Assembly (NCBI GenBank): GCA_041690595.1
Contig: JAWLHB010000016.1
Coordinates: 62,001 to 126,000, forward strand
Length of the DNA: 64,000 nucleotides
Origin: Lentisphaeria bacterium
GTDB taxonomy: Bacteria; Verrucomicrobiota; Lentisphaeria; JABSQK01; JAWLHB01
Direction: 5' to 3'
The position numbers and the translations under genes were made by a program. Shown piece by piece: positions 25,889 to 53,307 of this stretch. The notes below the pieces were generated by a model. That model saw only the letters and a program-made list of their open reading frames with translations, did no database searches and was not told the DNA's origin. The first letter of the stretch is position 1. The number at the start of each line of letters is the position of its first letter.

Positions 25889-26009
25889 ATTTTTTTGATT
25901 GGTCCAAGGGGGATGGGGCAAATGGACGAAACGGACGAAACGGACAGAACGGACAAACACAAGATGCGGGCAGCGGGGAAGGGGATGATGCTGACGGTGG
26001 TGGAAGCAG

Positions 26010-26588: not shown

Positions 26589-26640
26589 TTGACGGGGATG
26601 TCGAGGGGGGTATATATTGCGTTGTGTTACCGATAACACA
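26589..26640 (+). promoter_or_regulatory. Sigma70-like promoter and palindromic operator of the GntR-LacI gene
   Basis: TTGACG-N16/18-TATATATT followed by tgtgtta-ccga-taacaca (26623-26640). Confidence 0.6.
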
Positions 26641-26682
26641 CTGTGCTACGTGATCAAACAGCCAGTTGAGGATGGTTTGTCC

Positions 26683-27816
26683 ATGGCCGCAACAGCCACG
26701 ATGGTGGAACGCACATCGCAATATGCCGCGCTGGCGGGGACGTTGCGTCACATGATACTGGACGGTCGCTTTCTTCCTCATGAGCCGCTGCCGTCGATTC
26801 GTGAGCTTTCGGATCGTCACGGTGTCGGGGTGCAGGTGGTGCGGAGCGCGCTTGGGCAGCTGATGGAGGAGGGGCTGGTCTATCGCCGGGAAGGGCGCGG
26901 CACCTTCGTTGGGCTGCGCAACGAGACTGGCGGGGAGTCGGTTGTAAGGCCCGCGTTGCGCTGCATCACCTTTGTGGAGCGTCCATCGGGGACATCACCG
27001 GGTTTCGTGCGAACGGGGTATCTGCAGGGTTATACGGAAGTGCTGGAGTCTCTGGACACGAAGATGCGTATTCTGCCGTGCCCGGAACCTGAAGAGGCGA
27101 TCGAGGACCTGCTGAGTCCGAACTATCCGTACCAGGAGCAGGGTGTGGTTCTGATCAATCTGCTGTCGGGGCCGCTGATGCAGAAGCTGGCGGATCACCA
27201 GGTGCCGTTTGTGGTGCAGAGCAACAAGGCGTACGACCGGCTGAATTATCCGCCGCATCATGGGGTGTACATCAACAAGGTGCATGGGGGCTTCGAGGCG
27301 ACTCGGTACCTGCTGAGCCTGGGGCATGAACGGATCGGTTTCATCGGGGCGGTACCGAGGGACCAGAGCTGGTCGCACGATGTCTACGGCGGATATCAGA
27401 GCGCGCTGGCCTGCGGCGGTTACGTGGTGCACAACCAGGATGTGCTCGATTTCGGCACCAATGAGCTGGCGATGGCGATCGGCCCGGTGCGCGACTTTCT
27501 GAACCGGTCGGATCTGCCGACGGCTTTCATGACGCAGAACGACACGCTGGCGCTGGCGGTGCTGGCGGCGGCCAGGCAGCTTGGGCTGAGGGTGCCGCGG
27601 GATCTGAGCGTCGTCGGCTTCGACGATCTGCCGGAGTCGGAACAGAGCGATCCGCCGCTGACGACTGTGGCGAATCCACGGGTGCGGCTGGGGCGAATCG
27701 CGGTGGAGATGCTCCTGAAGGCCAGCACGGGCGTCTTTACGGAACCGCAGTCACGGGCAATGGAGGGTTGCCTGGTGATGCGTGCGAGCGCGGGAGCAGC
27801 GGCACGCAAAGGTTGA
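26683..27816 (+). CDS. GntR-wHTH / LacI-type sugar-binding hybrid regulator (AraR-like)
   Basis: LPSIRELSDRHGVG...VRSAL..L..EGLVYRREGRGTFV; LGHERIGFIG, PTAF..ND.LA, VPRDLSVVGFDD, PPLTTV. Confidence 0.9.
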   Translation: MAATATMVERTSQYAALAGTLRHMILDGRFLPHEPLPSIRELSDRHGVGVQVVRSALGQLMEEGLVYRREGRGTFVGLRNETGGESVVRPALRCITFVERPSGTSPGFVRTGYLQGYTEVLESLDTKMRILPCPEPEEAIEDLLSPNYPYQEQGVVLINLLSGPLMQKLADHQVPFVVQSNKAYDRLNYPPHHGVYINKVHGGFEATRYLLSLGHERIGFIGAVPRDQSWSHDVYGGYQSALACGGYVVHNQDVLDFGTNELAMAIGPVRDFLNRSDLPTAFMTQNDTLALAVLAAARQLGLRVPRDLSVVGFDDLPESEQSDPPLTTVANPRVRLGRIAVEMLLKASTGVFTEPQSRAMEGCLVMRASAGAAARKG

Positions 27817-27930
27817 TCATGTCGGTACGGTGATGCGCATCGCCAACAGGAGCAGAGTATGGCAGTTTTGACAGCGAGCAAATGGGAACGTCATGCAAAA
27901 GATCGAACGTCAGTATGCAAAGGAGCCAGG

Positions 27931-28647
27931 ATGATGAATGCGAATCTGATGGAAAGTGGAGAGCACTCAGCGCCCGCGGGTCGGAGCCGGGCATTCACGC
28001 TGATCGAGTTACTGGTCGTGGTGGCGATAATTGCCATACTGGCTTCCATGCTACTGCCGGCGCTTTCGAAGGCGCGGGACAAGGCGCGTCAGGCGGTGTG
28101 TCAGAACCTGCTCAAACAGCAGGGTCAAGGGTGGCACCTGTACTGTGATGATTTTGACGGTTACTTCCCGGAGGTCACCGCACCCAATCCCTTCTGGAGT
28201 TGGCCGAACCTGGTGAAGCCGTATCTGGGCGGCAAGTACGACACAACGACGGTCGACGCGAAGATCCGCGAGAACAGCAAACTCTATCTGTGCCCGCAGG
28301 ACGAAACGCCGCTCAAGCTGGCGGGGCCGTGGCCCGGACCGGTCTTGCCCTACGTCTACACGATGGTCTCGTACGCCGCCGATCAGAGCATGTGTGACTG
28401 GACCTTCACACCGCGCAAGATCGACGCAGTGCCGAACACCAGCAATACGCTGATGCTGACGGATGCCAACTACTTCCGCTTCGCCGGCTACGAGGGGAAT
28501 GCGGCCACCGGGCACTGGCTGTACGACTCCTTCACGAAGCTGGACGATGTCGCGGAGTCGCGACACAGCGGTGGTGTCAACGTCCTCTTCGTGGATGGTC
28601 ATGTCCAGGGCGTGAAACGCATCGACAAGGGAACGATCTTCAAGTGA
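27931..28647 (+). CDS. Prepilin-type N-terminal cleavage/methylation protein with H-X9-DG motif (DUF1559-like)
   Basis: [40 protein letters not shown]....[23 protein letters not shown]. Confidence 0.9.
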
Positions 28648-31013
28648 TGAGAATTCTGACATTGGTTCTGTTGGCGATCACGCTTGTACTGGAGGCGGCG
28701 ACGCTGGAGGTGGAGGTCGCGCGCTGTGTCATCATTCAGGCGGCAGACGCGGAAGCTCCGCAACAGGAAGCCGCGGCCGAGTTGCGCAAGCACCTCACGC
28801 TGATCGGTGGCACCGAGGTGCCGATTCTGGCCCCGGCCGCGGAACGGCCCGCCGGCAGCTATCCGCTCCATGTGGGAGTGCGGGCGCCGGGAGACGAACG
28901 CCCCCTCGTTGCCGAGGAGGCGCGCTGGGTGATCGAGGACGAAGGAGCCTGGTTCTATGGCGACCGCGAGAGGTATGGCGATGGGGCACGCTTTGCGGTC
29001 TATGCCTTTCTGGAAGAACAGCTGGGAGTCCGCTGGCTGGAACCTGGAGACGCGGGGATCGCCTTCAAGGAGCAGGCCACGCTGCAGCTGACGACCGGGG
29101 CTTACGAGTGGGTGCCGCAACTTGTCTTCCGCAAGATTCGGCAGAGCATCCGCCACAACAGCCCGCATCGGCCGATCGGTTTTCCGTCGACGGATGCCTT
29201 TCTGCTGTCGATGGAGGAGCATAATGCGCGGGTGGCGGATGAGGTGGTATGGCAGAAGCGGATGCGCATGGGTGGATCGCGGCCAGGTGGCGGGCACGCC
29301 TTCCATGACTGGTGGGAGAAGTATGGAGGGAGCAAGCCGGAGTACTTTGCGCTGAACAAGCACGGCAAGCGCGAACCGATTCCGCTGCCGAAGGCCCACC
29401 AGACCAATGCCTTCATCAAGATCTGCCCGAGCAATCCCGAGGTCGCCGACCAGCTCATCGCGAACTGGCTGCCCAGGCAGCAGGTGACTCAGTACATCAG
29501 CACGGGTCCTAATGACGGCCACAACTTCTGCGAGTGCGCGGCTTGCCTGGCGCTCGATGTGCGCGAGGAGGGTGAAGCGTTTCCCGGACACCTGACGGAT
29601 CGCTATGTACACCTGACCAATATCGTTGCGCGAAAGGCGCGTGAGCATCGGGCGGATGCATATGCGACGCTGTATGCGTATCTGACGACGCTCTATCCGC
29701 CACGCCGGCTGAAGGTGGAGCCGAATGTGGTTGTCCAGATCGTGCCGTACGTGATCCCGCTGAAGCTGTCGATCAACCGGGAGCTTTTCCGCGGCTGGAA
29801 GGAAGCCGGGGCGACGAAGCTGGCGCTGCGGCCGAACTATCATCACAAGTATATGGCGGGGTCGCTGCCGCTGGGTGTGGAAAAGCAAATGTTCGACATC
29901 TTTCAGCAGGCCGTGGAGAACGGGACGATTTCGGCCGATTACGACATGCTGATGGGGAACTGGGCGGTGACGGGGATGGCGGACTACATCCTGGCGAAAG
30001 CGATGGCGGAGCCGTCGAAGCCGTTCGAGTACTGGGAAGATCACTATTGCGAGGGCTATGGCGCGGCCGCTGAAGAGGTGAAGGCGTACTTTCGCTACTG
30101 GCGGGAGGCGGTGTGGGAGGAGCGCCTTCTGCCGGCGATCGACACGATCAGCGACGCGGGAAAGTCCGGGTTCTTCGTGCGCGGCCTGATGTGGACGATC
30201 GGGGACAATGATTACTACCGGGTTGCCGACTTCGACCGGACGGACGCCCTGTTACGGGCAGCGGCGGCGAAAGAGTTGAGCGCGAGAGAGCGTAGCAGCC
30301 TGGAGCAACTGATCCTGGCGAATCAGCATGCGCGTCTGGTCTACCATGCCTCGACCTCAAAAAGGGAAGAGCGCTACGAGCAGACACGGCAACTGGTGGC
30401 CTTCCGCGAGAAACACCACGGAACGCTGCGGCTGTCGTGGGTACGCCTGATCGGGTTGGAAGATCGGTACAACTGGACGGCGGTGCGAGAGGTGGAGCAG
30501 TTGAAAGGTTACCCGCCACCCTGGGTGGAAGCCGGCCTGACCTGGAATTTTCGCATGGACCCCGACGCGGTTGGCCTGAACGAGAAGTGGTACAGGTTGA
30601 CAGCCGAGGAGACCACATCCTGGGATCGGCTGCGCACCGACAATTTCTGGGAACGGGCCTACGACAGCGAGACGGATCCGGAGCTGCGCGGCAAGTTGGC
30701 GGCGTATGACGGGGCTGCCTGGTACTTTTCCCGCCTGATGATTCCGGCGGAGATGAAGGGACGGGAGATCGTTCTGCTCTTTGGCGGTGTGGGCGACAGT
30801 TGCCAGCTATACGTCAACGGAGAACCGACCGGCTCGTATTCGGTGGAGTCGGAAGCGGGCAAGACGCGGCCCTTCGCGCTGCGGATCGATCCCGCCATCG
30901 ACTGGAGCAAGGGTTTCCAGGAGATCTGCGTGCGGGTGGAGAATCGTGAAGGGCTGGGTGGCATCACCAACCGCATCTGGCTGGTCTCCAAATCAGGTAC
31001 CGGTGCGGAATGA
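28644..31013 (+). CDS. Secreted DUF4838-like protein with C-terminal GH2-N-type galactose-binding-like domain (paralog 1)
   Basis: Signal peptide; [46 protein letters not shown]-terminal YDGAAWY...LLFGGV....LYVNG. Confidence 0.75.
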
Positions 31014-31039
31014 AGCGTCAAATAAAGGGAAAGTTTCAA

Positions 31040-33421
31040 ATGAAGATGTCGGGCTTATGGGTCCTAATGGTAATCGGGCTGGCGGCGGGATTCTCATGGC
31101 ATACCGGGGCGGAGGAGATAACCGTCGCATCGGCGGTCATCGTCAGCCCCGCGCAAGCCTTGCCTGACCAAGTGGAGGCAGCGCGGGAGTTGCAGAAGCA
31201 CCTGACGCTGATCATGGGCTCGGAACCGGCTATCGTGAGGCCGGGTGAGGCCGCCGAGGGGCAGTATCCGTTCCATGTGGGGTTTGCGCCGCCCGACGAC
31301 GAGACGCCGCTGGAGCGCGAAGAGGCGCGCTGGGTGGTGAGTCCCGAGGGGGCTTACTTCCACGGTGACGACGAGAAAGGCATGTTCGGGACGCAGGTCG
31401 CGGTCTATGGCTTTCTGGAGGAGCAGCTTGGGGTGCGCTGGATCGCGCCGGGCGATGCGGGTATTGCCTTCAAGGCGCAGTCACCCCTGACGCTGCGGAG
31501 CGGTTCCTTCGGATGGATTCCGCAACTGCAGTTCCGAAAGATTCGCCAGGGGCTCCGGCTGAACCAGCCGCATCACCCGCGCGGCATGCCGGAATCCGAT
31601 GCGTTTCGTCTCTCGGTGGAGGAGCACAATGCACGGGTCGACGAGATCGTGCTCTGGCAGAAGCGGATGCGCATGGGCGGGGCGAGGCCCGGCGGTGGCC
31701 ATGCCTTTTCGTCCTGGTGGGTAAAGTACGGGGAGAGTCAGCCCGACCTCTTTGCGTTGAACAAGTACGGCAAGCGCGAGCCGGTGGCGCTCCCCAAGGG
31801 GGGGGCGGAGCGCAGCAACTCCTTCATCAAGATCTGCCCGAGCAACCCACGAGTGGCGGACCGGGTGATCGCCGACTGGCTGCCCCGCAAGGAGATCATC
31901 CAGTACATCAACGTGGGCGTTAACGACGGCTCGGAGAACTTCTGCGAGTGCGAGGATTGTCGTCGCCTCGACGTACCGTTGGAGGGTGAGGCGTGGGATG
32001 AACATCTGACCGATCGGTACGTGCACCTGGCGAACCAGGTGGCGAGAGAGGCACGAAAGCATCGCGAGGATGCGTGGGTGACGATGTACGCCTATCTGAA
32101 GACGTTGTATCCGCCGCGCAAGCTGAAGCTGGAGCCGAATGTCGTGGTGCAACTGGTGCCCTATGTGGATCCGCTCGACCTGGCGACCGTCAAGGCGCAC
32201 GTGGAGGGCTGGAAACGTGCCGGCGCGAAGCAGCTTTCACTGCGCCCGAACTATCACACCAAGTATTTCTCCACGACCATGCCTCTGGGCATCGAGAAGC
32301 AGATGTTCGACGTGCTTCAGCTGGCTGTTGAGAACGACTGCGTGGCGGCGGAGTATGACAGCCTCGTCAACAACTGGCCGGTCACCGGGCTGGCCGACTA
32401 CGTACTGGCCAAGGCGATGACGGATCCGTCGAAGCCTTTCGACTATTGGGCAGAACAGTATTACGAAGCTTTCGGCGCCGCGGCGGACGAGGTGAAGCGG
32501 TACTTCGAGTACTGGCGCCTCGAGGTGTGGAACCAGCGGCTGATGCCGGACATCCTGACCATCTCGACCAGAGGCGGGGCCGGCGACTTCGCACGCGGGC
32601 TCTTCTGGTCCCTTGGGAGCTATTATCGGCCAGAGGATTTCGAGGCGACACAGGCGATACTGGAGCAAGCGGGGGCGCGGCAACTGACCGCCGGCGAGAA
32701 GGTCCGCCTGACGCAGTTGCAGCTGGCCAACGAGCATGCGCGGCTCATGTACCTGGCGGTCGTGGCGAAACCGGAGAACAAGGGGGAGTTCGCGGAGACG
32801 TTGACGGCTTTTCGGCTGGCGCACAAGGATGAGCTGCCTCTGCAATGGGTTCAGGTTATCGGCTACGAAATCGGCAATGGGGACCTGACGGGGCTGAGGA
32901 TCGGTAAGGAGATGCAGGGTTACCTGAAGCCCTGGCTGCCGACGGAGCTTTTCTGGAAATTCCGGCTGGACCCGGCGAACGTCGGGGAAGCGGAGGCCTG
33001 GCAGAAGCTGCCGTGGGAGTCGCTGACGGCGTGGCACAGCTTCCGGACGGACCGGACCTGGGAACAGCAGTTCGAGTTCGACGAACCGCACAATCTTCCG
33101 GAAGAGACGGCCAGGGTCATCTTCACCTACGATGGTATCGGCTGGTATGCGACGCGGCATGCGATCCCCGCCGACTGGAAGGGCAGACGCATCTTTCTGC
33201 GCTTCGGGGCGGTAGACGAATCGTGCTGGGTCTACGTTAACGGCGAGCTTGCCGGCGAGCACATCTATACCAACGCGAACGACTGGAAGACGCCTTTCGA
33301 GATCCAGATCGACAAGCAGGTGAACTGGAATGCGCCGCTGCAGCAGGTAACGGTGCGGGTGGAGGATCGGGGCGGTATGGGCGGCATCTGGCGGCCAGTG
33401 TGGATCGTCTCGAAAGAGTGA
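31040..33421 (+). CDS. Secreted DUF4838-like protein with C-terminal GH2-N-type domain (paralog 2)
   Basis: Same motifs as the upstream paralog ([33 protein letters not shown]); YDGIGWY...FLRFGAVDESCWVYVNG...GGIWRPV. Confidence 0.75.
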   Translation: MKMSGLWVLMVIGLAAGFSWHTGAEEITVASAVIVSPAQALPDQVEAARELQKHLTLIMGSEPAIVRPGEAAEGQYPFHVGFAPPDDETPLEREEARWVVSPEGAYFHGDDEKGMFGTQVAVYGFLEEQLGVRWIAPGDAGIAFKAQSPLTLRSGSFGWIPQLQFRKIRQGLRLNQPHHPRGMPESDAFRLSVEEHNARVDEIVLWQKRMRMGGARPGGGHAFSSWWVKYGESQPDLFALNKYGKREPVALPKGGAERSNSFIKICPSNPRVADRVIADWLPRKEIIQYINVGVNDGSENFCECEDCRRLDVPLEGEAWDEHLTDRYVHLANQVAREARKHREDAWVTMYAYLKTLYPPRKLKLEPNVVVQLVPYVDPLDLATVKAHVEGWKRAGAKQLSLRPNYHTKYFSTTMPLGIEKQMFDVLQLAVENDCVAAEYDSLVNNWPVTGLADYVLAKAMTDPSKPFDYWAEQYYEAFGAAADEVKRYFEYWRLEVWNQRLMPDILTISTRGGAGDFARGLFWSLGSYYRPEDFEATQAILEQAGARQLTAGEKVRLTQLQLANEHARLMYLAVVAKPENKGEFAETLTAFRLAHKDELPLQWVQVIGYEIGNGDLTGLRIGKEMQGYLKPWLPTELFWKFRLDPANVGEAEAWQKLPWESLTAWHSFRTDRTWEQQFEFDEPHNLPEETARVIFTYDGIGWYATRHAIPADWKGRRIFLRFGAVDESCWVYVNGELAGEHIYTNANDWKTPFEIQIDKQVNWNAPLQQVTVRVEDRGGMGGIWRPVWIVSKE

Positions 33422-33451
33422 AATCATCATCGTCATCGGGGGGAGCGCGAC

Positions 33452-34921
33452 ATGTCAAAGCGTAACATCATCTTCTTTCACGCGGAGAGCTGGGACGGCC
33501 GGATGCTGGGGCTGCTCGGTCATCCGGCGCTGGCGGGTGCCACGCCGAACATCGACCGCATCGCGCGGCAGGGCATGCTCTTCCGCAATGCCTATACGTC
33601 GCATCCGATCTGCTGTCCATCCCGCGCCAACATGTGGTCGGGGCGGTATACGCAGCATTGCGAGAGCTGGAACAACTACAAGGGGCTGGAGCCGGGCATG
33701 TGGGCGCTTCTGGACGAGCTGCCGAAGAGCCACGCGACGGCGGTATTCGGGAAGCGGGACTATCGCTCCGGCGGTCACAGCATGCAGGCCAGGCTGACAG
33801 GCTGGCTGGGGGCCGCGGGGATCGAGAAGCCCAGCTACAGCTTCGATCCGGCGCAGGGCATCCACATTGCCGACGATGATTCGCCCCGCTGTTACGAGAG
33901 CGACTGGCGGTTGATCGACAGCAGTATCGCCTTTCTGGAGGAGCATCGCGATGGCGAGCGCCCCTTCTTCCTGAACATCAGCTCGCATCTGGTGCATGCC
34001 TCGTTCAAGACCAATCGCTACTGGCTCGAGAAGATTCCCGAAGAAGCGGTGGATATCCCGCCGCTGGATCCCTGCACGCATCCGTGCGTCGCCTTTCAGC
34101 GAGGGAGCAAGGCGTGGCAACACGGCTTCGACGAGGCGACGGTTCGCAAGGTTCGCCGCATCTACTTTGCGATGTGCGCGGAAGCGGATGCCATGGTCGG
34201 GGCTGTCTACGACGCCATGGAGCGGCTCGGCCTGGGCGACTCTACCTACTTCGTCTTTTCGAGCGATCATGGCGAGTTGGCGCTCGAACACCAGCAATAC
34301 TACAAGATGTCGCTCTACGAAGGTTCGGTGCGGGTGCCGATGTGCATGACCGGCCCCTCGATCCCCGCGGGTGGGGAGAGCGAAAACCTGGTCTCGACGA
34401 TCGATCTGTGCCCTACCCTGATGGCGATGGCCGGACTGCCGGCGCGCGTGGATTGCGACGGCGAGAATCTGCTGCCGCTGGCAACCGGCGAGACAACGGA
34501 GAGCCGCAACAGCGCTTATGCCTGCTTCACCGGCACCTCGATGAATACCGCCGCCTTCATGCTGCGCCGAGAACGGTGGAAGTACATCGCCCATGTGGGC
34601 CATCCGAGCCAGCTCTTTGACATAGAGGCCGATCCGCGGGAGTTGGAGGATCTGAGCACGGTCCGCCCGGAGGTTGCGGCACGGCTCGACGGGGAGCTGC
34701 GCCAGATCGTGGATTACGAAGCGACGCATCGCGACTGGCAGAGCTACTGCAAGTCGGCCTTCAGGCAATGGCGGCGTCAGGCCAAACGCGGTCTCTATGT
34801 GGACGAGTCGTACTCGCTGCGGGGAAATCCCAGCTCGGACTACTGGCGGATCATGGACAATGCCTATACTGGCTATGACCAGGACGACGAGGCGAAGGTC
34901 GAGACGTGGCTGAACGCATGA
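33452..34921 (+). CDS. Formylglycine-dependent S1 sulfatase, arylsulfatase K-like
   Basis: CxPxR motif in PICCPSRA, SSDHGE, KMSLYEGSVRVP, LVSTIDLCPTL, QLFD...DP.E; no signal peptide. Confidence 0.92.
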   Translation: MSKRNIIFFHAESWDGRMLGLLGHPALAGATPNIDRIARQGMLFRNAYTSHPICCPSRANMWSGRYTQHCESWNNYKGLEPGMWALLDELPKSHATAVFGKRDYRSGGHSMQARLTGWLGAAGIEKPSYSFDPAQGIHIADDDSPRCYESDWRLIDSSIAFLEEHRDGERPFFLNISSHLVHASFKTNRYWLEKIPEEAVDIPPLDPCTHPCVAFQRGSKAWQHGFDEATVRKVRRIYFAMCAEADAMVGAVYDAMERLGLGDSTYFVFSSDHGELALEHQQYYKMSLYEGSVRVPMCMTGPSIPAGGESENLVSTIDLCPTLMAMAGLPARVDCDGENLLPLATGETTESRNSAYACFTGTSMNTAAFMLRRERWKYIAHVGHPSQLFDIEADPRELEDLSTVRPEVAARLDGELRQIVDYEATHRDWQSYCKSAFRQWRRQAKRGLYVDESYSLRGNPSSDYWRIMDNAYTGYDQDDEAKVETWLNA

Positions 34922-37845
34922 CGGAAGCGAACGTGGGCATGTCACACCAGTATCCGGAGCCGCCGGAGCCACCTCCTGAAGCGGAATGGCCTTTCGAGGA
35001 AGAGCTGACGAAGCCGCTGCATGTGGCCATGCCATTCGGCGACGGCCCGGCCCCCGCGGAAGACGAGCTGGACTTCCGGGGCGGCATCGCGCTGACGCGG
35101 CGTTTCCCGGATCCCGACTGCCGGCTGGATACCGCCTACGCGGATTTCGGCGAGTTCAGCGCATCCATCGCCCTGGGCAACGGGCCGACGCCTGTCGTCA
35201 CCGAGTTGGCGAGCGGCTACACGAAGGAGGAGTACCGAATCAGTGTCGGCACGGGCGGCATCACGGTGGCGGCGGGCGAAACGGAGGGAATCCGTCGCGG
35301 CCTGATCCATCTGGAAGAGATGATCCTGGCCCGCCGGAACTGGTGCCTCCCGTATGGCGCCACCCGTCGCAAGCCGAGCATACGTACCCGCCTCTCCCGC
35401 TGCTTTCATGGCCCCATCAACCGGCCTCCGAAGTGCCGGGATGAGCTGCTGGACGAGAACGATTATTACGCGGATGGATATCTGAACCGCCTGGCGCACC
35501 ACGGGATCAACGGGCTGTGGATGACCATCCGGTTCTCGGATCTCATCGCTTCGAAGGTGCTGCCGGAGCTGGGCAGCGGCTCACCGCGACGGCTGGAAAA
35601 GCTGCGGCGGAACGTGCGGCAATGCGCCCGGTATGGGATCAAGCTCTATCCCTTCTGCATCGAGCCGGCGGCGCTGTCGGCGGAGAGTCCGGTGCTGAAA
35701 GCGCATCCCGGGTTGAAGGGCTCGGACGCGATGGGGAACCGTGCGCTCTTCTGCACCAGCTCCGCCATCGGCCAGGCGTACCTCGAGGATGCAACCCGCA
35801 CCCTCTTCAGCGAAGTGCCGGGCCTGGGCGGGCTGATCTGCATTCCGGTCGGCGAGCGCTTCACCCATTGCTATTCGGGGCGCCTGGCGATCAACTGCCC
35901 GCGTTGCTCCAGCCGGGAGCCGTGGGAGGTGCTGGCGGATACACTGGCGGCGATGGAGCGGGGCATGCATGGCGTAGATCCCGAGGCCGAGCTGATTGCG
36001 TGGCCGTACAGCCAACTGGTCGTCTGGGGGGCACAGGCGACGGAGACGGCGGCGGGACACATGCCGGCGAAGGTGATCCTGCAGCACAATTTCGAGACTG
36101 GCGGCAAGGTGAAGCAACTGGGCAAATGGCGGCCGTTGTGGGATTACTGGCTGTCGTGGGTCGGCCCAAGCCGTAATTTCAAGGTCTGCGCCACGGCGGC
36201 GCGGCGGAACGGCACGCGCATGTTCGCGAAGCTGCAGACGAGCTGCTCGCATGAGGTGGCGACGACGCAGTATGTGCCGGTGCCCGGGATACTCTACCGG
36301 AAGTACAAACGGATGCGGGCGCTTGGGGTGAGCGGGGTCATGCAGGGCTGGTACTTCGGCAACTATCCGGGGATCATGACCAGGGCTTCGCGGGTGCTCT
36401 CCTTTTCTCCCTTTCCGAGAACGGAGCGGGAGTTTCTGCTCGCGCTGGCGGCGCCGGCCTGGGGCAGCCACGCGCCGCGGATGGTCGAGGCGTGGGAGCA
36501 TTTTGCCGATGGTTACAGCCACTATCCCGGGGCGCAGGTATTCGGCTACTATGGGCCGATGCATGACGGCGTGGTCTGGCCCCTGTACCTGGGGCCGCGC
36601 CACCTGCCCCTGGCACCCACGTGGCGCATCGTGCATCCCATGAGCGGCGATCAGGTAGGGGAATGCATCTCCGCCCACTTCGAGTATCGGGAAGTTCTGG
36701 CGCTCTGCAAACTGCTGCGCGACCACTGGCGCAAGGGGACGGCCATCATCCGTCAGCTCGAGGGTAGCTTCAGCGCCGAGTGCCGGCAGGAGATCAATGT
36801 CGCGCTGGCGCTGGGTGTGCAGTTCGACAGCGCCTACAACATCCTGCTCTTTTATCAGCTGCGCGACCAGCTCGCCGACGCCGGTTCGCGGCAAGCCCAG
36901 CTCGCTCTTCTGGAGAAGCTGCGCGGTCTGGTGCTGGCTGAAATCGAGAACGACAGGGTGCTGCTGGAGCTTTGCGCTGAGAACCGGACGCTCGGCTTTC
37001 ATTCCGAGGCGGAAGGCTACAAGTACTTTCCGGAGAAGATCAGGTGGCGGATGGGGCAATTGCAGTCGCTTCTCGAAGTGGAGTTTCCGAAGGTTGCCAG
37101 CCAGGTCGGCCGGTATCCGATGCCCAGCTTCGAGAACTATGTGGGGAAAGGCGACTCCATCCAGGCCTATCCGTGTCGCCGCGTGAGCGATGGAGACCAA
37201 CTCGGGCGGACCCCCTTTGATCCAGAGTGGGACGGACATGCCACTACCGTCTGCCGCTTCTGGGCAGCACCGCGAGCGTCGGAAGCGGCCCAACCTTTTC
37301 CCTTCAACAGCACCCTCTATCCCGTGGCAGAGCCGAAGAATGCGCCCCCCCCACTGGCCTGGCGCGCTGTCTGGGACGAGCGTGCCGTTCACGTTTGCCT
37401 GATCTGGCAAGCTGAAGCCGGACCCGTCGTGCCCGGACCGGACGATGACGAGATCCGCATCACGCTGGAGCCGGATCGGCTGGGCGTCGGTCGGTCAATC
37501 GTGATCCGGAAGAGCCAGCCCGAGCTAGCGGCGTTTTGGGCGGAGAAGCCGACGATCTTTTTCGAGAGCCGTGGCGCCGAAGCGCGTCTGACGCTGACGG
37601 TACCGTTCGATCAACTGGGATTGCCTCCTTCGAGCGGCAGGCGCCTGCCCATGCGGATCAATGTCTCGTGTTTCTTCACGCCGATAACGGATCCGCTCTG
37701 CTTCACCGGCGAACCGCTGCTCAATTCGTGGGCGCCCAGCCGGCGCACGATGCCGCGCAATCTCTTCGGCTATACCGATCCGGGCACCTATGGGTGGCTG
37801 CAATTCAACGTCAATTCAACTGAAGAGGATGGTGCGCAACCATGA
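34918..37845 (+). CDS. Uncharacterised glycoside-hydrolase-like protein (GH20/GH67-type N-terminal domain + TIM-barrel-like core), paralog A
   Basis: EEYRISV....ITVAA....GIRRGL; DYY.DGYLNRLAH.GINGLW; C..C motif. ATGA overlaps at both ends. Confidence 0.6.
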   Translation: MTEANVGMSHQYPEPPEPPPEAEWPFEEELTKPLHVAMPFGDGPAPAEDELDFRGGIALTRRFPDPDCRLDTAYADFGEFSASIALGNGPTPVVTELASGYTKEEYRISVGTGGITVAAGETEGIRRGLIHLEEMILARRNWCLPYGATRRKPSIRTRLSRCFHGPINRPPKCRDELLDENDYYADGYLNRLAHHGINGLWMTIRFSDLIASKVLPELGSGSPRRLEKLRRNVRQCARYGIKLYPFCIEPAALSAESPVLKAHPGLKGSDAMGNRALFCTSSAIGQAYLEDATRTLFSEVPGLGGLICIPVGERFTHCYSGRLAINCPRCSSREPWEVLADTLAAMERGMHGVDPEAELIAWPYSQLVVWGAQATETAAGHMPAKVILQHNFETGGKVKQLGKWRPLWDYWLSWVGPSRNFKVCATAARRNGTRMFAKLQTSCSHEVATTQYVPVPGILYRKYKRMRALGVSGVMQGWYFGNYPGIMTRASRVLSFSPFPRTEREFLLALAAPAWGSHAPRMVEAWEHFADGYSHYPGAQVFGYYGPMHDGVVWPLYLGPRHLPLAPTWRIVHPMSGDQVGECISAHFEYREVLALCKLLRDHWRKGTAIIRQLEGSFSAECRQEINVALALGVQFDSAYNILLFYQLRDQLADAGSRQAQLALLEKLRGLVLAEIENDRVLLELCAENRTLGFHSEAEGYKYFPEKIRWRMGQLQSLLEVEFPKVASQVGRYPMPSFENYVGKGDSIQAYPCRRVSDGDQLGRTPFDPEWDGHATTVCRFWAAPRASEAAQPFPFNSTLYPVAEPKNAPPPLAWRAVWDERAVHVCLIWQAEAGPVVPGPDDDEIRITLEPDRLGVGRSIVIRKSQPELAAFWAEKPTIFFESRGAEARLTLTVPFDQLGLPPSSGRRLPMRINVSCFFTPITDPLCFTGEPLLNSWAPSRRTMPRNLFGYTDPGTYGWLQFNVNSTEEDGAQP

Positions 37846-40112
37846 TGCATCCGAAGCTCGACTTTCCCGGCAAGCTAAAACCGATCTTCGAGGATCTGGC
37901 CACCCCCATGCACGCACGGAGTCACCGCAATCCCGAGCGCTTGTGCAGAGAGGGCGAGGTATCGTTGGAAGCCGGGTTCAGGCTGGATCTCTCGGCCTTC
38001 GAGGGGGAGCCGCATCTGGGGCTCCTGCTGGACGACTTCCGCACCTTCATGACCACGGTCATGGAGACAGCCGAAGCGGCGGACGGTTACGCCATACGCG
38101 TGCGGCGCGAGCGTCCAGCCACGTCCCCCAAGGGCGCACGGGAGGCCCATCGCCTCGCCATTGCAGAGGATGGCTGCCTGATTCAGGCGGAGGATATGGA
38201 TGCGCTGCGCCGGGCGCTTTACCGGCTTCAGGACGAGATGCTGCTGCGCCGCGCTCCCGTGCTCCCCGTCGGCGATGAAACGCGCTGGACGACGATTGCC
38301 ACGCGCATCATACGCTCGCCGATCGCGCCTTACCGCTGGTGGTCCGGCTGGGAACTGGACGACGATCCGAACGATTACTATCCCGATGCGTACCTGAACC
38401 GCCTGGCCCATGCCGGCATCAACGGGCTCTGGATACCCGGCTTGCTGAGGAAGCTGGTGGCCTCGACATGCATTCCGGAGCTGGGACCGCGGGAGCACCG
38501 CCTGGAAAAGCTCAAGGCGGTTGTCGCCAAGGCAGCCCGATATGGCATACGCATCTATCTCTTCTGTATCGAGCCTCGCGCGCTGCCGAAAGGGCATCCG
38601 GCCCTCGTCGCTCATCCGGAGATAACCGGTGCGGGTAATACCCTCTGCTCCTCGCAACCTCTGGTGCGGGAGTACATCCGGGAGGTCATGCAGAGCCTCT
38701 TTACGGAGGTGCCGGAGCTGGCGGGCATCATCAACATCTTCTGCGGTGAACGGCCGACGACCTGCTACTGGCGGGACGAGGAGTTCGCGGCACAGTGCCC
38801 GACATGCTCGCAGCGCAGCCAGGGGGAGGTTCTGGCGGAATCGCTGAACGCCTTCATGGATGGGATCCGCGCCGCCGGCTCACAGGCGGATGTCATGGCC
38901 TGGACCTACTTCATCGGCAAGAACCGGGAGGCTAGCCCGATCGCGCCCATGCTGGAGGTCATGAAGAGGACGGATCCGCGGGTCATCTGGCTGGGCAACT
39001 TCGAGCATGGCGGCGAGAAGGAGCTCTGCGGCAAGCAGGTTCGCATACACGAGTATTCCTTGTCATACCTGGGCCCATCCAGCGACTTCGTGGCGATGGC
39101 GAAGGCGGCAATCGAGAGCGGGCGAACCATCCACGCGAAGCTGCAGATCGGCACCTCGTACGAGCTGTCGAGCGTGCCCTACATTCCGGCGCCTGGCATC
39201 GAGTACGAGAAGATCAGGATCGCAACCGAGCTGGGGGTGACGGGCTCGATGATGACTTGGATCCCCGGCGGCTTCCCCAGCCCCATGCTCAAAGCCGCGG
39301 GCGAAGCAGTCTTCGAGCCCAGGTTGCCGCACGACGCTTTTCTGCGCCGGATCGCCGCCATCTACTGGGGCGAGGCGACCGCGGCCGGGGTGGCGGCGAG
39401 TTGGAAGATCTTCGACGAGGCGTGGCAGCGCTACCCCTTTGCCCATGCGGGGCTCTATTGGGGGCCGATCACCCGCGGGCCGGCCTATCAGCTGCACCTC
39501 GAGCGCGAAGCTCGCCTGGCCAAGCCGTACAACTTCGGCTTCACCCGTAAGCGGGAGCCGCAGCCCTGGGAAGACAACATCTCGCGCTGGCTGGGCCCGT
39601 TCACGCCCGATGAGCTTGCGGGCGCCTTCCGCGACATGGCGGAGCGCTGGCAGGGGGGGCTGGCGAAACTCGACGCGGCCCGCGAGTTGGCGGGTGCGGA
39701 TTCCGAGCTGGACCGGCAGGTTGCCGTCGCCGCGGCCATCCGCCTGCATGCGGTCAGCGCGGCAAACGTCTTCGAGTTCTATTCTCTGCGCGACAGCCTC
39801 CTCGAGGCCGCCCCGTCGGATCATCCCGCCATCGTGGCGCGAATGAGCGCGGTCGCCAGGGACGACGTTCAGGCAGCGAAGGCCATGCTGGAGCTGCTCG
39901 CGAGAGAACCCCGACTGGGATTCGAAACGGAAATCTTCGATTACAGCTATACCCGGCCCCTGTTGGCGGAGAAGATCCTCCAGGTTCAGGAAATGCTGCC
40001 GATCCTCGCCAGATGGGAGGCAAACGGCATCGAGCCGGAGATCCTCCGTCGTACCGTAGAAGAAGCCGACCTGTTGCGTCCGGATCGCGATCCGGACCGG
40101 TGGGGAGATTGA
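37842..40112 (+). CDS. Uncharacterised glycoside-hydrolase-like protein, paralog B
   Basis: Shares NDYY.D.YLNRLAH.GINGLW, ARYGI..Y.FCIEP, LF.EVP.L.G.I.I..GER, NFE.GG, S..GPS..F and AKLQ...S.E.....P.PG with 34918-37845. Confidence 0.6.
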   Translation: MMHPKLDFPGKLKPIFEDLATPMHARSHRNPERLCREGEVSLEAGFRLDLSAFEGEPHLGLLLDDFRTFMTTVMETAEAADGYAIRVRRERPATSPKGAREAHRLAIAEDGCLIQAEDMDALRRALYRLQDEMLLRRAPVLPVGDETRWTTIATRIIRSPIAPYRWWSGWELDDDPNDYYPDAYLNRLAHAGINGLWIPGLLRKLVASTCIPELGPREHRLEKLKAVVAKAARYGIRIYLFCIEPRALPKGHPALVAHPEITGAGNTLCSSQPLVREYIREVMQSLFTEVPELAGIINIFCGERPTTCYWRDEEFAAQCPTCSQRSQGEVLAESLNAFMDGIRAAGSQADVMAWTYFIGKNREASPIAPMLEVMKRTDPRVIWLGNFEHGGEKELCGKQVRIHEYSLSYLGPSSDFVAMAKAAIESGRTIHAKLQIGTSYELSSVPYIPAPGIEYEKIRIATELGVTGSMMTWIPGGFPSPMLKAAGEAVFEPRLPHDAFLRRIAAIYWGEATAAGVAASWKIFDEAWQRYPFAHAGLYWGPITRGPAYQLHLEREARLAKPYNFGFTRKREPQPWEDNISRWLGPFTPDELAGAFRDMAERWQGGLAKLDAARELAGADSELDRQVAVAAAIRLHAVSAANVFEFYSLRDSLLEAAPSDHPAIVARMSAVARDDVQAAKAMLELLAREPRLGFETEIFDYSYTRPLLAEKILQVQEMLPILARWEANGIEPEILRRTVEEADLLRPDRDPDRWGD

Positions 40113-40127
40113 TAAGGTGATGAAAAG

Positions 40128-41507
40128 ATGACGTGCAAAATAGTCTTTGTGGGCGGTGGCAGCTTTCTGTGGACGGAACGCTTTGCCATCGACCTCTTTC
40201 TGAAGAAGCCGCTGCGAGGCAGCCGCCTGGTGCTGGTGGACAAGGATCGGGAGGCGCTCGACCTGGTGGCCGGCATCTGCCGCCTGGCCAACGAGAAGGC
40301 CGGCGCCGACTGGAGTATCGAAACCGCCGAGTTGGACGATGCACTTGCCGGAGCCCATTACGTGATTGTCTCCATTTCCACCGGCGGCCTGGAGGCATTC
40401 GAACTGGATTATCGCATCCCGGAGAAGTACGGCGTCTTCCATTCGGTGGGCGACACGGTGGGTCCAGCGGGCATTTCGCGGACCCTGCGCAACGTGCCTG
40501 TCTTCATCGACATCGCCCGCAGAATGGAACAGACATGCCCCGATGCGTGGATGATTCACGTGACCAATCCGCTGGCGCAACTGACGCGATGCGTCGCGAA
40601 GGCGAGTACCATCAAGGTGATGGGGCTTTGCCACAATTTCGAAGGAACCATGGGGGCCCTTGCCAAGTTCCTCGGAGCCGAGCGGCGGGAACTCCATGCG
40701 GAGACCTTCGGCGTCAACCACTTCACCTTTCTGCGCAACATGACTTGGCGGGGCGAGCCCTTCGAGGAGCGGCTGAGCGTGGACGCTTACCTGCGTTACC
40801 ACGAAGAGGTGCATGGGCCGGTGACCAGCGGCACGACCGATGACGAGATCAACGCCATGCTCGGCGGCAGCATCGACGACCGGCTCTCGTACCAGTTGTA
40901 CGATCGGCTCGGCTACTTCCCGGTGGGCGGGGCGGAGCACGTTGCCGAGAATTTTCCTTTCTTCCTGAACGATCCCGCGACGATTCGCCGGCATCGCATC
41001 CGCCGCAAGGGGGTTCTGCCGCGCCGGCAGGAAGGCAAGGAGCAGAAGCGCAAGCGTGTCGAAGATATCCTCGCGGGACGGGTAGCGATGAACGACCTCG
41101 TACCCAGCCGCGAAGCACTGGCGGACATCATTCAGGCGCTTCATGCGGGTGTCCCCTGCCAGGCCGTCGTCAACCTCCCGAATACCGGGCAGATCGAAAA
41201 CCTGCCGCCGGATGTCGTGGTCGAGAGCTGGGCGGCCATCGAGAAGGACGACGTCTCGCCGCTCCCGAGCGGCTCCGTGCCAGTCGTCCTCAAAGGGGCA
41301 CTCGAGTCCATCATCGCGGAGGAAGAGCTGGCCGTGGAGGCGGCGCTGACCGGTGATCGCCGGCTGGTCATCCAGGCGATGTTCGTTTCGCCCTTGCTGC
41401 ACGACAAGGACGCCGCCGAGGCGCTGGCCGACGAGTTGCTTGCCGCCCAGGCCGACTACCTGCCGCAGTTTCGCCGGCACCTGGTCGCGGAGGAGATCCG
41501 TCCGTGA
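40128..41507 (+). CDS. GH4 glycosidase (LplD/uronidase-like branch, variant CHNF motif)
   Basis: KIVFVGGGS, IPEKYGVFHSVGDTVGPAG, TNP, GLCHNF, GVNHF, NLPN.GQI.NLP. Confidence 0.85.
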   Translation: MTCKIVFVGGGSFLWTERFAIDLFLKKPLRGSRLVLVDKDREALDLVAGICRLANEKAGADWSIETAELDDALAGAHYVIVSISTGGLEAFELDYRIPEKYGVFHSVGDTVGPAGISRTLRNVPVFIDIARRMEQTCPDAWMIHVTNPLAQLTRCVAKASTIKVMGLCHNFEGTMGALAKFLGAERRELHAETFGVNHFTFLRNMTWRGEPFEERLSVDAYLRYHEEVHGPVTSGTTDDEINAMLGGSIDDRLSYQLYDRLGYFPVGGAEHVAENFPFFLNDPATIRRHRIRRKGVLPRRQEGKEQKRKRVEDILAGRVAMNDLVPSREALADIIQALHAGVPCQAVVNLPNTGQIENLPPDVVVESWAAIEKDDVSPLPSGSVPVVLKGALESIIAEEELAVEAALTGDRRLVIQAMFVSPLLHDKDAAEALADELLAAQADYLPQFRRHLVAEEIRP

Positions 41508-42952
41508 TGAACGGCTTGATGATCGATTGCTGCCGCACGCTCGAAAAGCACGACTATTATCACCGGCTCATCGATTTCATGGCCGACTGGAAGATGACGC
41601 ACCTGCAGCTGCATGTGACCGACAATCATGGGTGCGCCATCGCCATTCCGGGCTTCACCCATCTCGCCATGCCACATGCCTTCACGGCGGCGGACATCGC
41701 GGCACTCTGCAGCCATGCCGCCGACAGGGGCATCACCATCATACCAGAGCTGGAGACCTTCGGGCACAGTCAGTACCTCACCGATCATCCCGACTATAGC
41801 CACCTCTACGCCGGTGTGGACAAGGGGCCGGGTGAACAGAAAGGCGGTGGCATGAATCCCCTCGATCCCCGCAGCCTCGCGCTCATGCGCCGCCTTATCG
41901 ATGGCGTCATCGACCTTTTCCCGTCGCCCCATATTCATATCGGTTGCGACGAGGTGAAGATGGCCCACTTCCTGGAGGAAGAGGGAGTACGCGAGGAAGA
42001 TGCCTGGGCGGATTATGTGAATGCGCTGGCGGATCACGTGCGCCAGGCCGGCAGGACGCCCATTATCTGGGCCGACCAGCTCAAGAAGAAGCCCGAGACC
42101 GCCGCCCGGCTGAGAAAGGATATCGCGGTGATGGAATGGGATTACGAGGCTGACGCAACGGATGCGGCGATCGCGCGACTCCGTGAGCACGGTTTCGTGG
42201 AGGTGATGGCATCGCCGTCCATCATCTTCTGCCGCTATCGGATCTTCCCCACGGAGATCGCCCTCAGCAACACCCGTCGCATGGTACGCCATGCATTCCG
42301 GCACGAGCTGACGGGAGTCATGAATACAGCCTGGTGCCCCCATCGCTACCTGACCGGCGCCCTCTACTACGCCATCGCCTACAGCGCGTACCTGGTGGAG
42401 CATCGCGGCACCGTCGCCATGAGCGCCTTTCGGCAAGCCTTCGCCAGGTCGACCTTCGCCACTGACTGCAATCGGGCGCTGGAGCGCTTCCTCTCTCTCT
42501 GGCCACGGCTGAACATCCGGGATCAGCTCGCCAGAGCGCTCTGCGGAGAGGCGCCAACGACGGCCGAGTTGGAGGCGCAGCTGCGGGCAATCAACACCCT
42601 GGGACGCGAGGCGCTCCACCACGCGGCGCGCTTCAAGCCGCGGGCCAATCACGACATCTGGCACGCCATGGCCCTCTCTGCCCGCGTCGCCTGGATCTGC
42701 GCCGAGAGCCACTGCGCCGCCGACGACCCCGTCCGACGCGAGGCTTTCGAACGCGAGCTGGACACGATTATTGTGGCCGTCGAGGAGGAGTGGGATCGAA
42801 CCCGTCAGCCCGATGATCCGCACAAGTACACGCCGCACTTCAAAGAGCCTTGCTCCGCGTATCTCATACCGCTACTGTACACCCTCAGACAGCGGAGCCG
42901 GTCCACGCCGATGCATGACCCTGAAACGACACACACAAGAGAGACGACATGA
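41504..42952 (+). CDS. GH20 family beta-N-acetylhexosaminidase (catalytic domain only)
   Basis: GLMIDC.R, LQLHVTD, IIPELETFGH, catalytic HIGCDE, IIWAD, MEWDY. Confidence 0.82.
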   Translation: MMNGLMIDCCRTLEKHDYYHRLIDFMADWKMTHLQLHVTDNHGCAIAIPGFTHLAMPHAFTAADIAALCSHAADRGITIIPELETFGHSQYLTDHPDYSHLYAGVDKGPGEQKGGGMNPLDPRSLALMRRLIDGVIDLFPSPHIHIGCDEVKMAHFLEEEGVREEDAWADYVNALADHVRQAGRTPIIWADQLKKKPETAARLRKDIAVMEWDYEADATDAAIARLREHGFVEVMASPSIIFCRYRIFPTEIALSNTRRMVRHAFRHELTGVMNTAWCPHRYLTGALYYAIAYSAYLVEHRGTVAMSAFRQAFARSTFATDCNRALERFLSLWPRLNIRDQLARALCGEAPTTAELEAQLRAINTLGREALHHAARFKPRANHDIWHAMALSARVAWICAESHCAADDPVRREAFERELDTIIVAVEEEWDRTRQPDDPHKYTPHFKEPCSAYLIPLLYTLRQRSRSTPMHDPETTHTRETT

Positions 42953-44025
42953 GTACACCTGAGCGAAGCGCCAAGCGCGGCAAGATCAAAGTTGGCCTGG
43001 TGGGAATCGGACGTGCGGGATGGGGCATGCACCGCAACGAGCTGGCGAAGGTTCCCCGGCTCTTCTCGCTGGTGGCAGCCTGCGACCCCGATCAGCATCG
43101 CTGTGACCTCCTCGCGGAGGCGGTCGGCTGCCGCACTTATCCCACCATCGAGCAGCTCATTGCCGACGACGAAGTGGAGATGGTCGATATCGCCAGCCGC
43201 TCGCCCGAACATGTCGCCCATGCCATCCTGGCGCTCGAGGCCGGCAAGTTCGTCTTCCTGGAGAAGCCTATCGCGGTCAGCCACGATGAAGCCATGCGCC
43301 TCATGGTCGTGGCGAAGCGCTTTCCCGGACGCCTCTTCATCCGCCACAATCGCCGCTTCGAGCCCGAGTTCCAGCATGTGCGCGAGATCATCGACTCGGG
43401 CATTCTTGGCGATGTGCACACCATCAAGCTCTGCCGCAATGGCTTCCAGCGGCGGGACGACTGGCAGACCATCATCGCCTGCGGCGGAGGCCAGCTCCTC
43501 AACTGGGGCCCACACCTGGTGGATCATGCGCTGCGCCTTCTGGATGCACCGATCAAGGAGCAGTGGAGTCACCTCAACCTGATTGCCGCCGCGGGCGATG
43601 CCGAGGATCATGTCCGCATCGTGCTGAAGGGCGAAAACGAGCGCACCGTCGAGGTGCAGATCAGCGGGGGAACCGCACTGCCGGAGCCGCTCTATACGGT
43701 GCACGGTACCCGCGGATCCCTGATCTCCGCCGGCAACATCTTCAAGCTGCGCTACATCTCCCCCTCGCAGAAGCTGGAGCCGATCACCGCCCGGACCGCC
43801 AGCCCGCCGATAGACGCCAGCTTCGGCAACAAAGAAAAACTCAGGTGGATCGACAAGGAACTTCCCGTCAAGCCCAAGCACAAGGTCGACATGCAGACCA
43901 GCATCTGGAAGGCGCTCCACAAAGCCATCCGCGAGGGCGCGGAGTTCCCAATCACCCTCGAGCAGGCGCTCGCTGTCATGGAGGTCATCAGCCGGGTGAA
44001 GCAGGGCAGCCGCTTCGCGGGGTGA
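42949..44025 (+). CDS. Gfo/Idh/MocA family oxidoreductase
   Basis: VGLVGIGRAG, AGKFVFLEKP, HNRRF, GGGQLLNWGPHLVD. Confidence 0.92.
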   Translation: MSTPERSAKRGKIKVGLVGIGRAGWGMHRNELAKVPRLFSLVAACDPDQHRCDLLAEAVGCRTYPTIEQLIADDEVEMVDIASRSPEHVAHAILALEAGKFVFLEKPIAVSHDEAMRLMVVAKRFPGRLFIRHNRRFEPEFQHVREIIDSGILGDVHTIKLCRNGFQRRDDWQTIIACGGGQLLNWGPHLVDHALRLLDAPIKEQWSHLNLIAAAGDAEDHVRIVLKGENERTVEVQISGGTALPEPLYTVHGTRGSLISAGNIFKLRYISPSQKLEPITARTASPPIDASFGNKEKLRWIDKELPVKPKHKVDMQTSIWKALHKAIREGAEFPITLEQALAVMEVISRVKQGSRFAG

Positions 44026-52077: not shown

Positions 52078-52156
52078 CTTTCCGCCTCCATGGTTCTCAT
52101 ACTAAATCGCCATCCGCCACCGAAGGCAATACCCCCTCTTTCTCCGTCGATTCTAC

Positions 52157-52214
52157 TTGACCCATCCCCATCCGGATCATACAGTACGATCCACAACCCA
52201 CTTGGTGTATACAC
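52157..52214 (+). promoter_or_regulatory. Sigma70-like promoter plus palindrome immediately before the second GntR-LacI gene
   Basis: TTGACC-N17-TACAGT (52157-52185) and perfect palindrome GTGTATACAC (52205-52214). Confidence 0.5.
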
Positions 52215-52215
52215 A

Positions 52216-53292: not shown

Positions 53293-53307
53293 AACGGAGA
53301 TTCATAC

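Follow-up and report, generated by a model that had tools for sequence, protein, structure and literature searches.

The gene cluster and its control region

We have analyzed a stretch of 64,000 nucleotides (from here on, the window) of a Lentisphaeria bacterium, positions 62001-126000 of contig C16 in a genome of 8.1 Mb (99 contigs, 97% complete). Of the 8 close relatives of its TrmD protein that carry an organism name, 5 are Lentisphaeria. It contains a run of ten genes on the + strand (26701 to 44025, numbered within the window) that is almost certainly a glycan-catabolic operon, with a sugar-type regulator and a type IV pilin-like gene at its head. Genes were called with a purpose-written, hexamer-trained program (5718 genes genome-wide), which, trained independently of the initial gene list, chose the identical ten; their common direction, order and domains are those given in the initial annotation of this DNA. 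The regulator (26701..27816, start as set by this program) combines a GntR winged helix-turn-helix (PF00392) with a LacI-type sugar-binding domain (PF13377) and is one of 91 such proteins in the genome. It is followed by the pilin-like gene (27934..28647), with matches to N_methyl, SBP_bac_10/DUF1559 and TIGR04294 (H-X9-DG), and by two exported DUF4838 proteins. One of them (28647..31013), with a C-terminal GH2_N-type jelly roll, was assigned by Pfam, an export heuristic and a predicted fold like those of glycoside hydrolase (GH) families GH115, GH84 and GH20; the other (31010..33421) is a paralog 54-55% identical to it, whose true start is probably a Met ten codons downstream. The last six genes code for an S1 formylglycine-type sulfatase with an intact C-x-P-x-R motif and no signal peptide (33452..34921), an unclassified cytoplasmic protein (34918..37845; alternative GTG start at 34906; 7 paralogs in the genome), a paralog of the latter at 33% identity (37842..40112; 1258 relatives at E<=0.001), a GH4 NAD-dependent glycosidase identified by comparison with Pfam, NCBIfam and the PDB (40128..41507), a GH20 hexosaminidase-like protein with an H-x-G-x-D-E motif and no signal peptide (41504..42952) and, by domain scans, a Gfo/Idh/MocA oxidoreductase (42949..44025). 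Start and stop overlap at six of the nine junctions (28647, 31013, 34921, 37845, 41507 and 42952), not at five as first counted; the remaining three, between regulator and pilin and at 33421-33452 and 40112-40128, are gaps.

Domain scans detected no transporter domain among the ten proteins, in agreement with the initial annotation, and no internal transmembrane segment was predicted in any of them. Signal peptides were assigned with a home-made heuristic (not SignalP), to whose limits all genome-wide export counts given below are subject; it flagged 0-1 protein per family in ten cytoplasmic families used as controls, 2/31 short-chain dehydrogenases/reductases and 21/82 Gfo proteins. By this heuristic both DUF4838 proteins were positive and the six downstream proteins negative, the same division that had been read from the sequence at first.

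A sigma70-like promoter precedes the regulator on the + strand (26589..26618; -35 at 26589, -10 ending at 26618), recognized by consensus match only, with 10 of 12 positions in agreement; on their own such sites are at chance level (4 found against 3.7 expected). Directly 3' of the -10 box lies a 16-bp near-perfect palindrome (26624..26639), the putative operator of the regulator. This palindrome, also proposed as operator in the initial annotation, is far beyond chance (0.02 expected in shuffles). No second intergenic copy with up to two mismatches was found genome-wide, therefore no distant member of the regulon shows, and none marks a dedicated transporter, which had been named as one of the observations that would speak against a role of the pilin in uptake. 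The gene 3' of the cluster has its own promoter-like site at 44075. AT-rich palindromes were in modest excess 5' of regulator-pilin cassettes of the genome (18/65, against 58/400 controls). Upstream of the promoter, 26009-26569 contains degenerate direct repeats, five copies of about 60 nt plus two further two-copy families; a 36-nt unit is unique to this site in the genome.

A predicted type IV pilin with a diversified head

The product of 27934..28647 starts with a basic leader that ends in Ala at -1. As in type IV prepilins, a hydrophobic alpha-1 helix follows, with Phe1 (codon at 27994) as first residue of the mature form and with Glu5; the protein also has Cys36 and Cys100 and a C-terminal motif formed by H191-N196-D201-G202-H203. 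It scores above the curated cut-offs of N_methyl (31.3 vs 21.2 bits), SBP_bac_10 (36.5 vs 23.3 bits) and TIGR04294 (35.2 bits, cut-off 19). In the model (predicted local distance difference test, pLDDT, 82.8) an N-terminal helix of 50 residues is followed by a head rich in loops, in which H-X9-DG forms the last beta-hairpin. In a wide fold search the top 16 rows were all type IV pilins, the best at a low Z of 5.6 (root mean square deviation, rmsd, 4.0 A over 118 aligned residues) and the second being ComP, a DNA-binding minor pilin (Z 5.0, rmsd 4.0 A, 93 aligned). The predicted fold is thus that of a type IV pilin, the long N-terminal helix being packed on a C-terminal beta-meander. With Foldseek the model matched nothing in the PDB at E<=0.001, and no lectin or solute-binding protein fold was among the 50 rows listed of the wide search; neither negative excludes anything.

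A hidden Markov model (HMM) of the prepilin N-terminus found 203 matches in the genome, of which 175 were retained as the pilin set (score >=74, mature length >=150) and 28 excluded as short pseudopilins, fragments or weak matches. Among the 175 the median identity is 65% in the N-terminal helices and 24% in the heads. Phe1 and Glu5 are retained in 174-175/175 and the H-X9-DG motif residues in 156-167/175; Cys36 is almost invariant and Cys100 is present in 170/175, which suggests a disulfide between them. The variable columns of the heads contain 8.6% Trp plus Tyr, against 5.7% in exported proteins. This family looks like a conserved plug carrying a diversified, possibly binding, surface. In the window there are two further members, both within 51463-56536, at 53308-54057 (behind a GntR-LacI-type gene) and 55871-56536, and another starts at 64773, just past its end. 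A larger cassette with GH123N-like genes straddles the right end of the window.

Position of the pilin genes in the genome

Gene families were built by all-against-all BLAST and labelled from Pfam scans of 174/200 chosen family representatives, extended with home-made HMMs. Of the pilins, 64/174 have a GntR/LacI-type regulator as their immediate upstream neighbour in the same orientation, compared with 61/5447 other genes (p 5e-67), and the signal falls to 16/168 at the second position upstream and 9/166 at the third. Seen from the other side, 48/91 GntR-LacI regulators stand directly before a pilin and 70/91 have one within three genes. The enrichment anticipated in the initial annotation thus holds for GntR/LacI and fails for AraC, found directly upstream of 1/174 pilins. 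The enrichment anticipated ahead of carbohydrate-active enzymes (CAZymes) also appeared, a CAZyme-like gene directly following 50/175 pilins against a background of 243/5442.

The strongest association is with what is exported. The gene after the pilin is predicted to be exported in 73/126 cases (15% background), with a median length of 811 aa and a median gap of 50 nt. Conversely, a pilin is found in the predicted operon of 111/206 large exported GH-like genes, compared with 604/5543 other genes. A large exported protein is present in the operons of 115/175 pilins; 31 operons are without one by the heuristic, and 6 pilins are beside regulators or other pilins only. In 16 pairs of pilins with close heads, the nearby exported enzymes were alike in 6/13 scorable cases (background 0.4%), the regulators in 2/8 and the cytoplasmic enzymes in 0/16. 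Over all pairs the Mantel correlation was weak, with rho 0.074 (p 0.006) for the exported gene at +1 and -0.017 for the regulator. The pilin pairs are not independent, and co-duplication accounts for the covariation. As judged from gene neighbourhoods, the unit is the pilin plus an exported enzyme, a pattern that cannot separate substrate binding from enzyme binding; that the pilin is functionally coupled to one or the other, the exported enzyme or its substrate, is very probable. About 55 URO-D/methyltransferase-like genes and more than 30 PhyH genes are also present in the genome, often within pilin operons.

Relatives

TIGR04294 matches were found in 34/41 genomes and in 0/14 controls. We compared 60 hand-picked loci (L047-L106) from 17 genomes, taken from 150 listed of 297 matches; the HMMs, built from the present genome, may undercount, and 9 of these loci were without a pilin by HMM. 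The pilins of this sample are preceded directly by another pilin in 34/95 cases, and the next non-pilin gene is exported, by the heuristic, in 23/42. Regulator-headed cassettes are present in three of the genomes (G020, G036 and G009). An ortholog of the whole locus was not found; the unclassified gene matched in two genomes, in the one of which examined the neighbourhood was different. A close match to the DUF4838 protein appeared in 1/40 relatives, on short contigs.

Enzymes and probable substrate

The model of the first DUF4838 protein (pLDDT 96) matches GH115, GH84, GH20 and GH67-type structures. DUF4838 (PF16126) is the domain responsible for catalysis in GH163 and in GH185, a family of 6-sulfo-GlcNAcases (PMC10570127). 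Our proteins share with these the PF16126 domain and the GH20/GH84/GH115-like barrel and differ from them in weak Pfam scores (94-96 bits) and an added GH2_N-type domain; as hexosaminidases they are candidates. GH163/GH185 have a conserved catalytic set of Asp, Gln, His and Tyr; invariant residues seen here are H200, D273, D287, Y328 and Y415. The two unclassified proteins (34918..37845 and 37842..40112) had no Pfam or NCBIfam match, and phmmer of a single one against the PDB gave nothing useful. The profile of their widespread family is GH20-like in its N-terminal part, the best PDB match being a GH20 lacto-N-biosidase (E 8e-7, profile positions 42-248). The GH4 protein has LplD alpha-galacturonidase as best PDB match and an alpha-galactosidase, below cut-off, as best NCBIfam match. 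Catalytic motifs are retained in the sulfatase and the GH20 protein. From this set of enzymes we infer a sulfated glycan with N-acetylhexosamine, probably also containing uronic acid or galactose. Its cleavage by the DUF4838 pair would take place outside the cytoplasm, and the final steps within it.

Transporters and predicted localization of the enzymes

The scarcity of linked transporters is a genome-wide rule and not peculiar to this locus. Counting TonB receptors, CUT1-type ATP-binding cassette (ABC) permeases and transporters of the major facilitator (MFS) and SSS types (with CUT2 and TRAP outside the count), a transporter is present within five genes of 10/175 pilins (background 352/5492) and of 18/371 CAZyme-like genes, and a known transporter shares the operon of 3/175 pilins; one cassette on contig C62 is in a run with a CUT2 ABC system. 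SusD (PF07980) had 0 matches in this 97% complete genome, the control being positive, and the locus has no susC/susD pair. Searches of the genome also found no PTS IIC, and its four TonB receptors all lie more than 5 genes away from any pilin. The remaining inventory comprises 31 CUT1-type and 5 CUT2-type permease domains, 12 SBP_bac_1 matches, 2 TRAP and 2 SSS genes and ~16 MFS genes, a small set of importers against ~140 sugar-type regulators. There are about ten CUT1-type ABC systems, three of them with the binding protein fused to the permease. Fusions of an ABC permease to SBP_bac_1, and one to a weak GH42-like domain, were noted at C3:267584-273039 (L028:1-5456), C5:256523 and C76:8062.

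By the heuristic, DUF4838 (48/58) and GH123N-like (29/34) proteins are mostly exported. None was flagged among the sulfatases of the main family (0/68), GH29 (0/14), GH20 (0/13), GH2 (0/9) and GH78 (0/8), and the GH4 family also appears cytoplasmic genome-wide. Tat-like motifs are present in 3/68 sulfatases. Elsewhere (e.g., in G025 and G031) sulfatases with signal peptides are picked up by this heuristic. Because no sulfatase appears exported, sulfated oligomers probably reach the cytoplasm. Import through the inner membrane is the step left open in the model of the initial annotation, and unlinked ABC systems or a second kind of machine may serve for it. Two unlinked ExbB-ExbD-ExbD-TPR clusters (C4:200001-220000, L132, and contig C47, L133) code for a giant protein of 2600-2900 aa and a DUF4159 membrane protein in addition to ExbB, a pair of ExbD and a pair of TPR proteins; neither cluster has a TonB receptor nearby. 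TPR and PA14 domains were detected in the giant protein of the C4 copy, the only copy scanned. We take these clusters to resemble MUL1 of Akkermansiaceae, and they are candidate shared machines for glycan uptake.

Assembly platforms

The platforms that the initial annotation suggested to look for elsewhere are both present, a complete type II secretion system (T2SS) on C53 and, for type IV pili (T4P), PilB/PilB/PilT/PilC on C9. There is also a secretin-PilM-ATPase operon on C7, whose first gene codes for a pilin that shares the N-terminal helix of the family and has no H-X9-DG. A pilin with the same helix is directly 5' of a C7-type secretin in 8/17 genomes having that secretin; 2 of the misses end at a contig edge and the other 7 belong to one family. 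The T2SS secretin was called as two adjacent open reading frames (L134:11599-14149, C53), one with the N domains (474 aa) and one with the secretin domain (370 aa). ATPases of the T2SSE/PilT family have 17 members, several of them lone genes of 690-770 aa far from any platform.

A possible role for the pilins in glycan capture

The locus can be pictured as one cartridge of a modular glycan-foraging system that would extend over the genome. In the sequence, a sugar-sensing regulator with a putative operator of its own heads an operon for a single pilin, a pair of exported DUF4838 hydrolases and six enzymes that would finish degradation in the cytoplasm. On induction the pilin would join a shared filament of T4P/T2SS type as a minor subunit, through the conserved N-terminal helix with Phe1 and Glu5. 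Its hypervariable aromatic head would bind the target glycan and deliver it to the co-expressed hydrolases at the surface or in the periplasm. Oligosaccharides still sulfated would then cross the inner membrane by a few shared, unlinked importers and be desulfated and split in the cytoplasm. The pilin would act like SusD as the locus-specific recognition part, without being a SusD and without a cognate channel gene. That it binds the glycan itself as a filament subunit, being a swappable, substrate-induced minor pilin that captures glycan for the enzymes encoded with it, is the reading we favour over those discussed below, a real possibility that we would stop short of calling probable. We are more tentative still about the wider claim that a library of up to ~175 interchangeable pilins on one shared machine replaces SusC/SusD and drives glycan entry. 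In its boldest form the pilins, mostly without the glycine of the cleavage site, may also pass oligosaccharides to a shared inner-membrane module. As for the SusD-like capture or uptake subunit proposed in the initial annotation, its genomic predictions were borne out, apart from AraC, and the mechanism is hypothetical. The strongest link, that with the exported hydrolase, would be explained nearly as well by an adaptor for cargo or display.

Several observations weigh against glycan capture by the pilin. The Z-scores of the fold are low, and aromatic-rich loops suit protein binding too. As the pilin tracks the exported enzyme, the covariation fits enzyme binding as well as substrate binding. 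There are 23/175 pilins that stand alone and 95/206 large exported enzymes without a pilin in the operon. Among 97 pilins from 15 genomes of relatives, 7/95 have a regulator as the immediate upstream neighbour on their strand, and no regulator-headed cassette was found in G035, G025 and G029 among the sampled loci; the link to an exported protein looks class-wide and the regulator link appears to depend on the lineage. The ExbBD-TPR(-PA14) clusters could capture glycan without pilins, and a pilus subunit alone would not account for import to the cytoplasm, the apparent site of action of the last six enzymes.

Processing is a further difficulty. Canonical PilD requires Gly or Ala at -1. Gly is found there in 14/175 paralogs, Ala in 16 (the pilin of the locus included), Ser in 18 and Arg in 54; in the relatives Gly is at -1 in 4/97 pilins. 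The rarity of Gly therefore makes processing by PilD uncertain. The genome has a single PilD (L035:3577-4833, contig C11), as does each of the 41 genomes searched. Because the core pilins of the C7-type operons, which are linked to machinery, are also without Gly-1, as are some pseudopilins of T2SS-type clusters, a lineage-wide PilD of relaxed specificity is more likely than loss of processing. This PilD is 418 aa long, its A24_N domain and C-terminal peptidase motif being separated by a long stretch of sequence, and had no match among PDB sequences; full-length matches are present in most genomes of the same order and shorter forms elsewhere. The long stretch was considered as the cause of the relaxed rule and dropped, given that G020 has a PilD open frame of 283 aa together with non-Gly pilins.

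Other readings of the same arrangement have to be considered. The pilin could recruit the large exported hydrolase encoded with it to a shared T2SS or pseudopilus, or display it on the filament, with sugar uptake unlinked. The exported genes found so close behind the pilins, the large exported proteins in most of their operons, the similar exported and dissimilar cytoplasmic enzymes beside close pilins and the complete T2SS all speak for such an adaptor, and a conserved pair is hinted at by the closest outside relatives, at 75% for the pilin and 57% for the first DUF4838 protein, which both list a longest contig of 23,996 bases. We nevertheless consider it rather unlikely, since runs of 3 to 5 different pilins stand ahead of a single enzyme, close enzyme pairs often have unrelated pilins, this locus has one pilin for two enzymes, co-duplication alone accounts for the covariation, and there are the lone pilins and the large exported enzymes without one in the operon. 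It is doubtful that the pilins work uncleaved in the inner membrane, binding periplasmic oligosaccharide and docking by the helix on a shared energizing module, in the manner of the S-components of energy-coupling factor (ECF) transporters, as a new kind of importer. The residue at -1 is non-canonical in 161/175, the putatively cytoplasmic sulfatases and exo-glycosidases mean that sulfated oligomers must enter, the importers are few for so many sugar-type regulators and almost never in pilin operons, and the T2SSE/PilT family is large. Set against this, the lack of Gly-1 in machinery-linked pilins points to a relaxed PilD, Glu5 is invariant, no translocation channel was identified and a few broad ABC systems could suffice.

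The pilins could also serve adhesion only, the induced pilin sticking the cell to glycan particles or varying the surface against phages, while uptake proceeds by the ExbBD-TPR-PA14 clusters and ABC systems, for both of which the genes exist. MUL2 has been read as an attachment device (PMC13174399), and tandem pilin arrays are common in the relatives, as noted. Phage evasion, however, predicts no fixed slot between a sugar regulator and an exported hydrolase, and substrate-specific sticking would still require a glycan-binding pilin, overlapping with capture; adhesion as the sole role seems to us improbable. Finally, catabolic islands might simply be rich in pilin genes that are functionally unconnected with the enzymes, given that a CAZyme-like gene is within 5 genes of 117/175 pilins over a background of 38% and that the regulator link is weak in several relatives. 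But the signal is strand-specific and sharply peaked at -1 and +1, other genes of the same islands seldom follow a regulator (Gfo 1/81, CAZyme-like 13/365) and at this locus the stop of the pilin overlaps the start of the enzyme gene, which makes such passengers very improbable.

Comparison with known systems

Polysaccharide utilization loci (PULs) of Bacteroidota gather in one regulated cluster per glycan the exported and finishing enzymes and a locus-specific, highly diversified recognition protein. The present locus has likewise a regulator located together with complementary CAZymes and a sulfatase, and a diversified candidate for recognition. It differs in that the genome has no SusD and no TonB receptor near such loci, the regulator is a cytoplasmic GntR-LacI protein, the sulfatases and exo-glycosidases appear cytoplasmic and the part that varies is a type IV pilin. 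In its working it resembles a PUL, without belonging to the SusC/SusD type. Another comparison is with receptor minor pilins (ComP of Neisseria, for example), in which a minor subunit confers ligand specificity on a shared filament. Our pilin has a predicted fold of that type; ComP, in contrast, is single-copy and binds DNA, and here there are many paralogs whose ligand is only inferred.

In domains, motif and large expansion of paralogs the family corresponds to the DUF1559/SBP_bac_10 (PF07596), H-X9-DG (TIGR04294) prepilins of the Planctomycetes-Verrucomicrobia-Chlamydiae (PVC) bacteria. The family, its expansion and its signal-peptide flanks are already in print (PMC8567305, PMC4807772 and PMC5352709): DUF1559 genes of Tuwongella are flanked by signal-peptide genes (PMC8567305), and family members are called solute-binding proteins (PMC4807772). 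The link to sugar regulators and CAZymes is absent from the passages of PMC8567305 and PMC4807772 on the family. The pilins of Lentisphaeria are also mostly without Gly-1, unlike mixed homologs, 86/119 of which have it. For the regulator-pilin-enzyme cassette no published description was found in the article texts searched.

A precedent for a pilus in glycan use is MUL2 of Akkermansiaceae, a type IV-like pilus locus with PilM (PMC13174399; see also PMC12418764), and pili-like fibres of planctomycetes bind dextran (PMC5394234). Comparable to MUL1 and MUL2 are, in the present genome, the C7 operon of secretin, PilM and ATPase, with a family-type pilin at its head, and the pair of ExbBD-TPR clusters. 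MUL2, however, is one conserved locus of four genes with an archaeal-like pilin; here 175 pilins are found in putatively substrate-specific operons away from the machine, the pilin of the locus sits in a catabolic operon and a different family-type pilin heads the secretin-PilM operon on C7.

The cassette pattern addresses two questions, the uptake of complex glycans by PVC bacteria in the absence of SusC/SusD and the function of the DUF1559 pilins, and each cassette predicts a pair formed by a pilin and a substrate or by a pilin and an enzyme. In PVC genomes the pilin gene could help to locate glycan loci and hydrolases not yet classified, much as susC/susD are used in Bacteroidota. The cytoplasmic look of the 68 main-family sulfatases, together with the few importers, is a separate puzzle of inner-membrane transport. 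If true, the pilin library would add a third architecture to those by which glycans are taken up selfishly and would give a function to DUF1559, among the largest protein families of the PVC bacteria.

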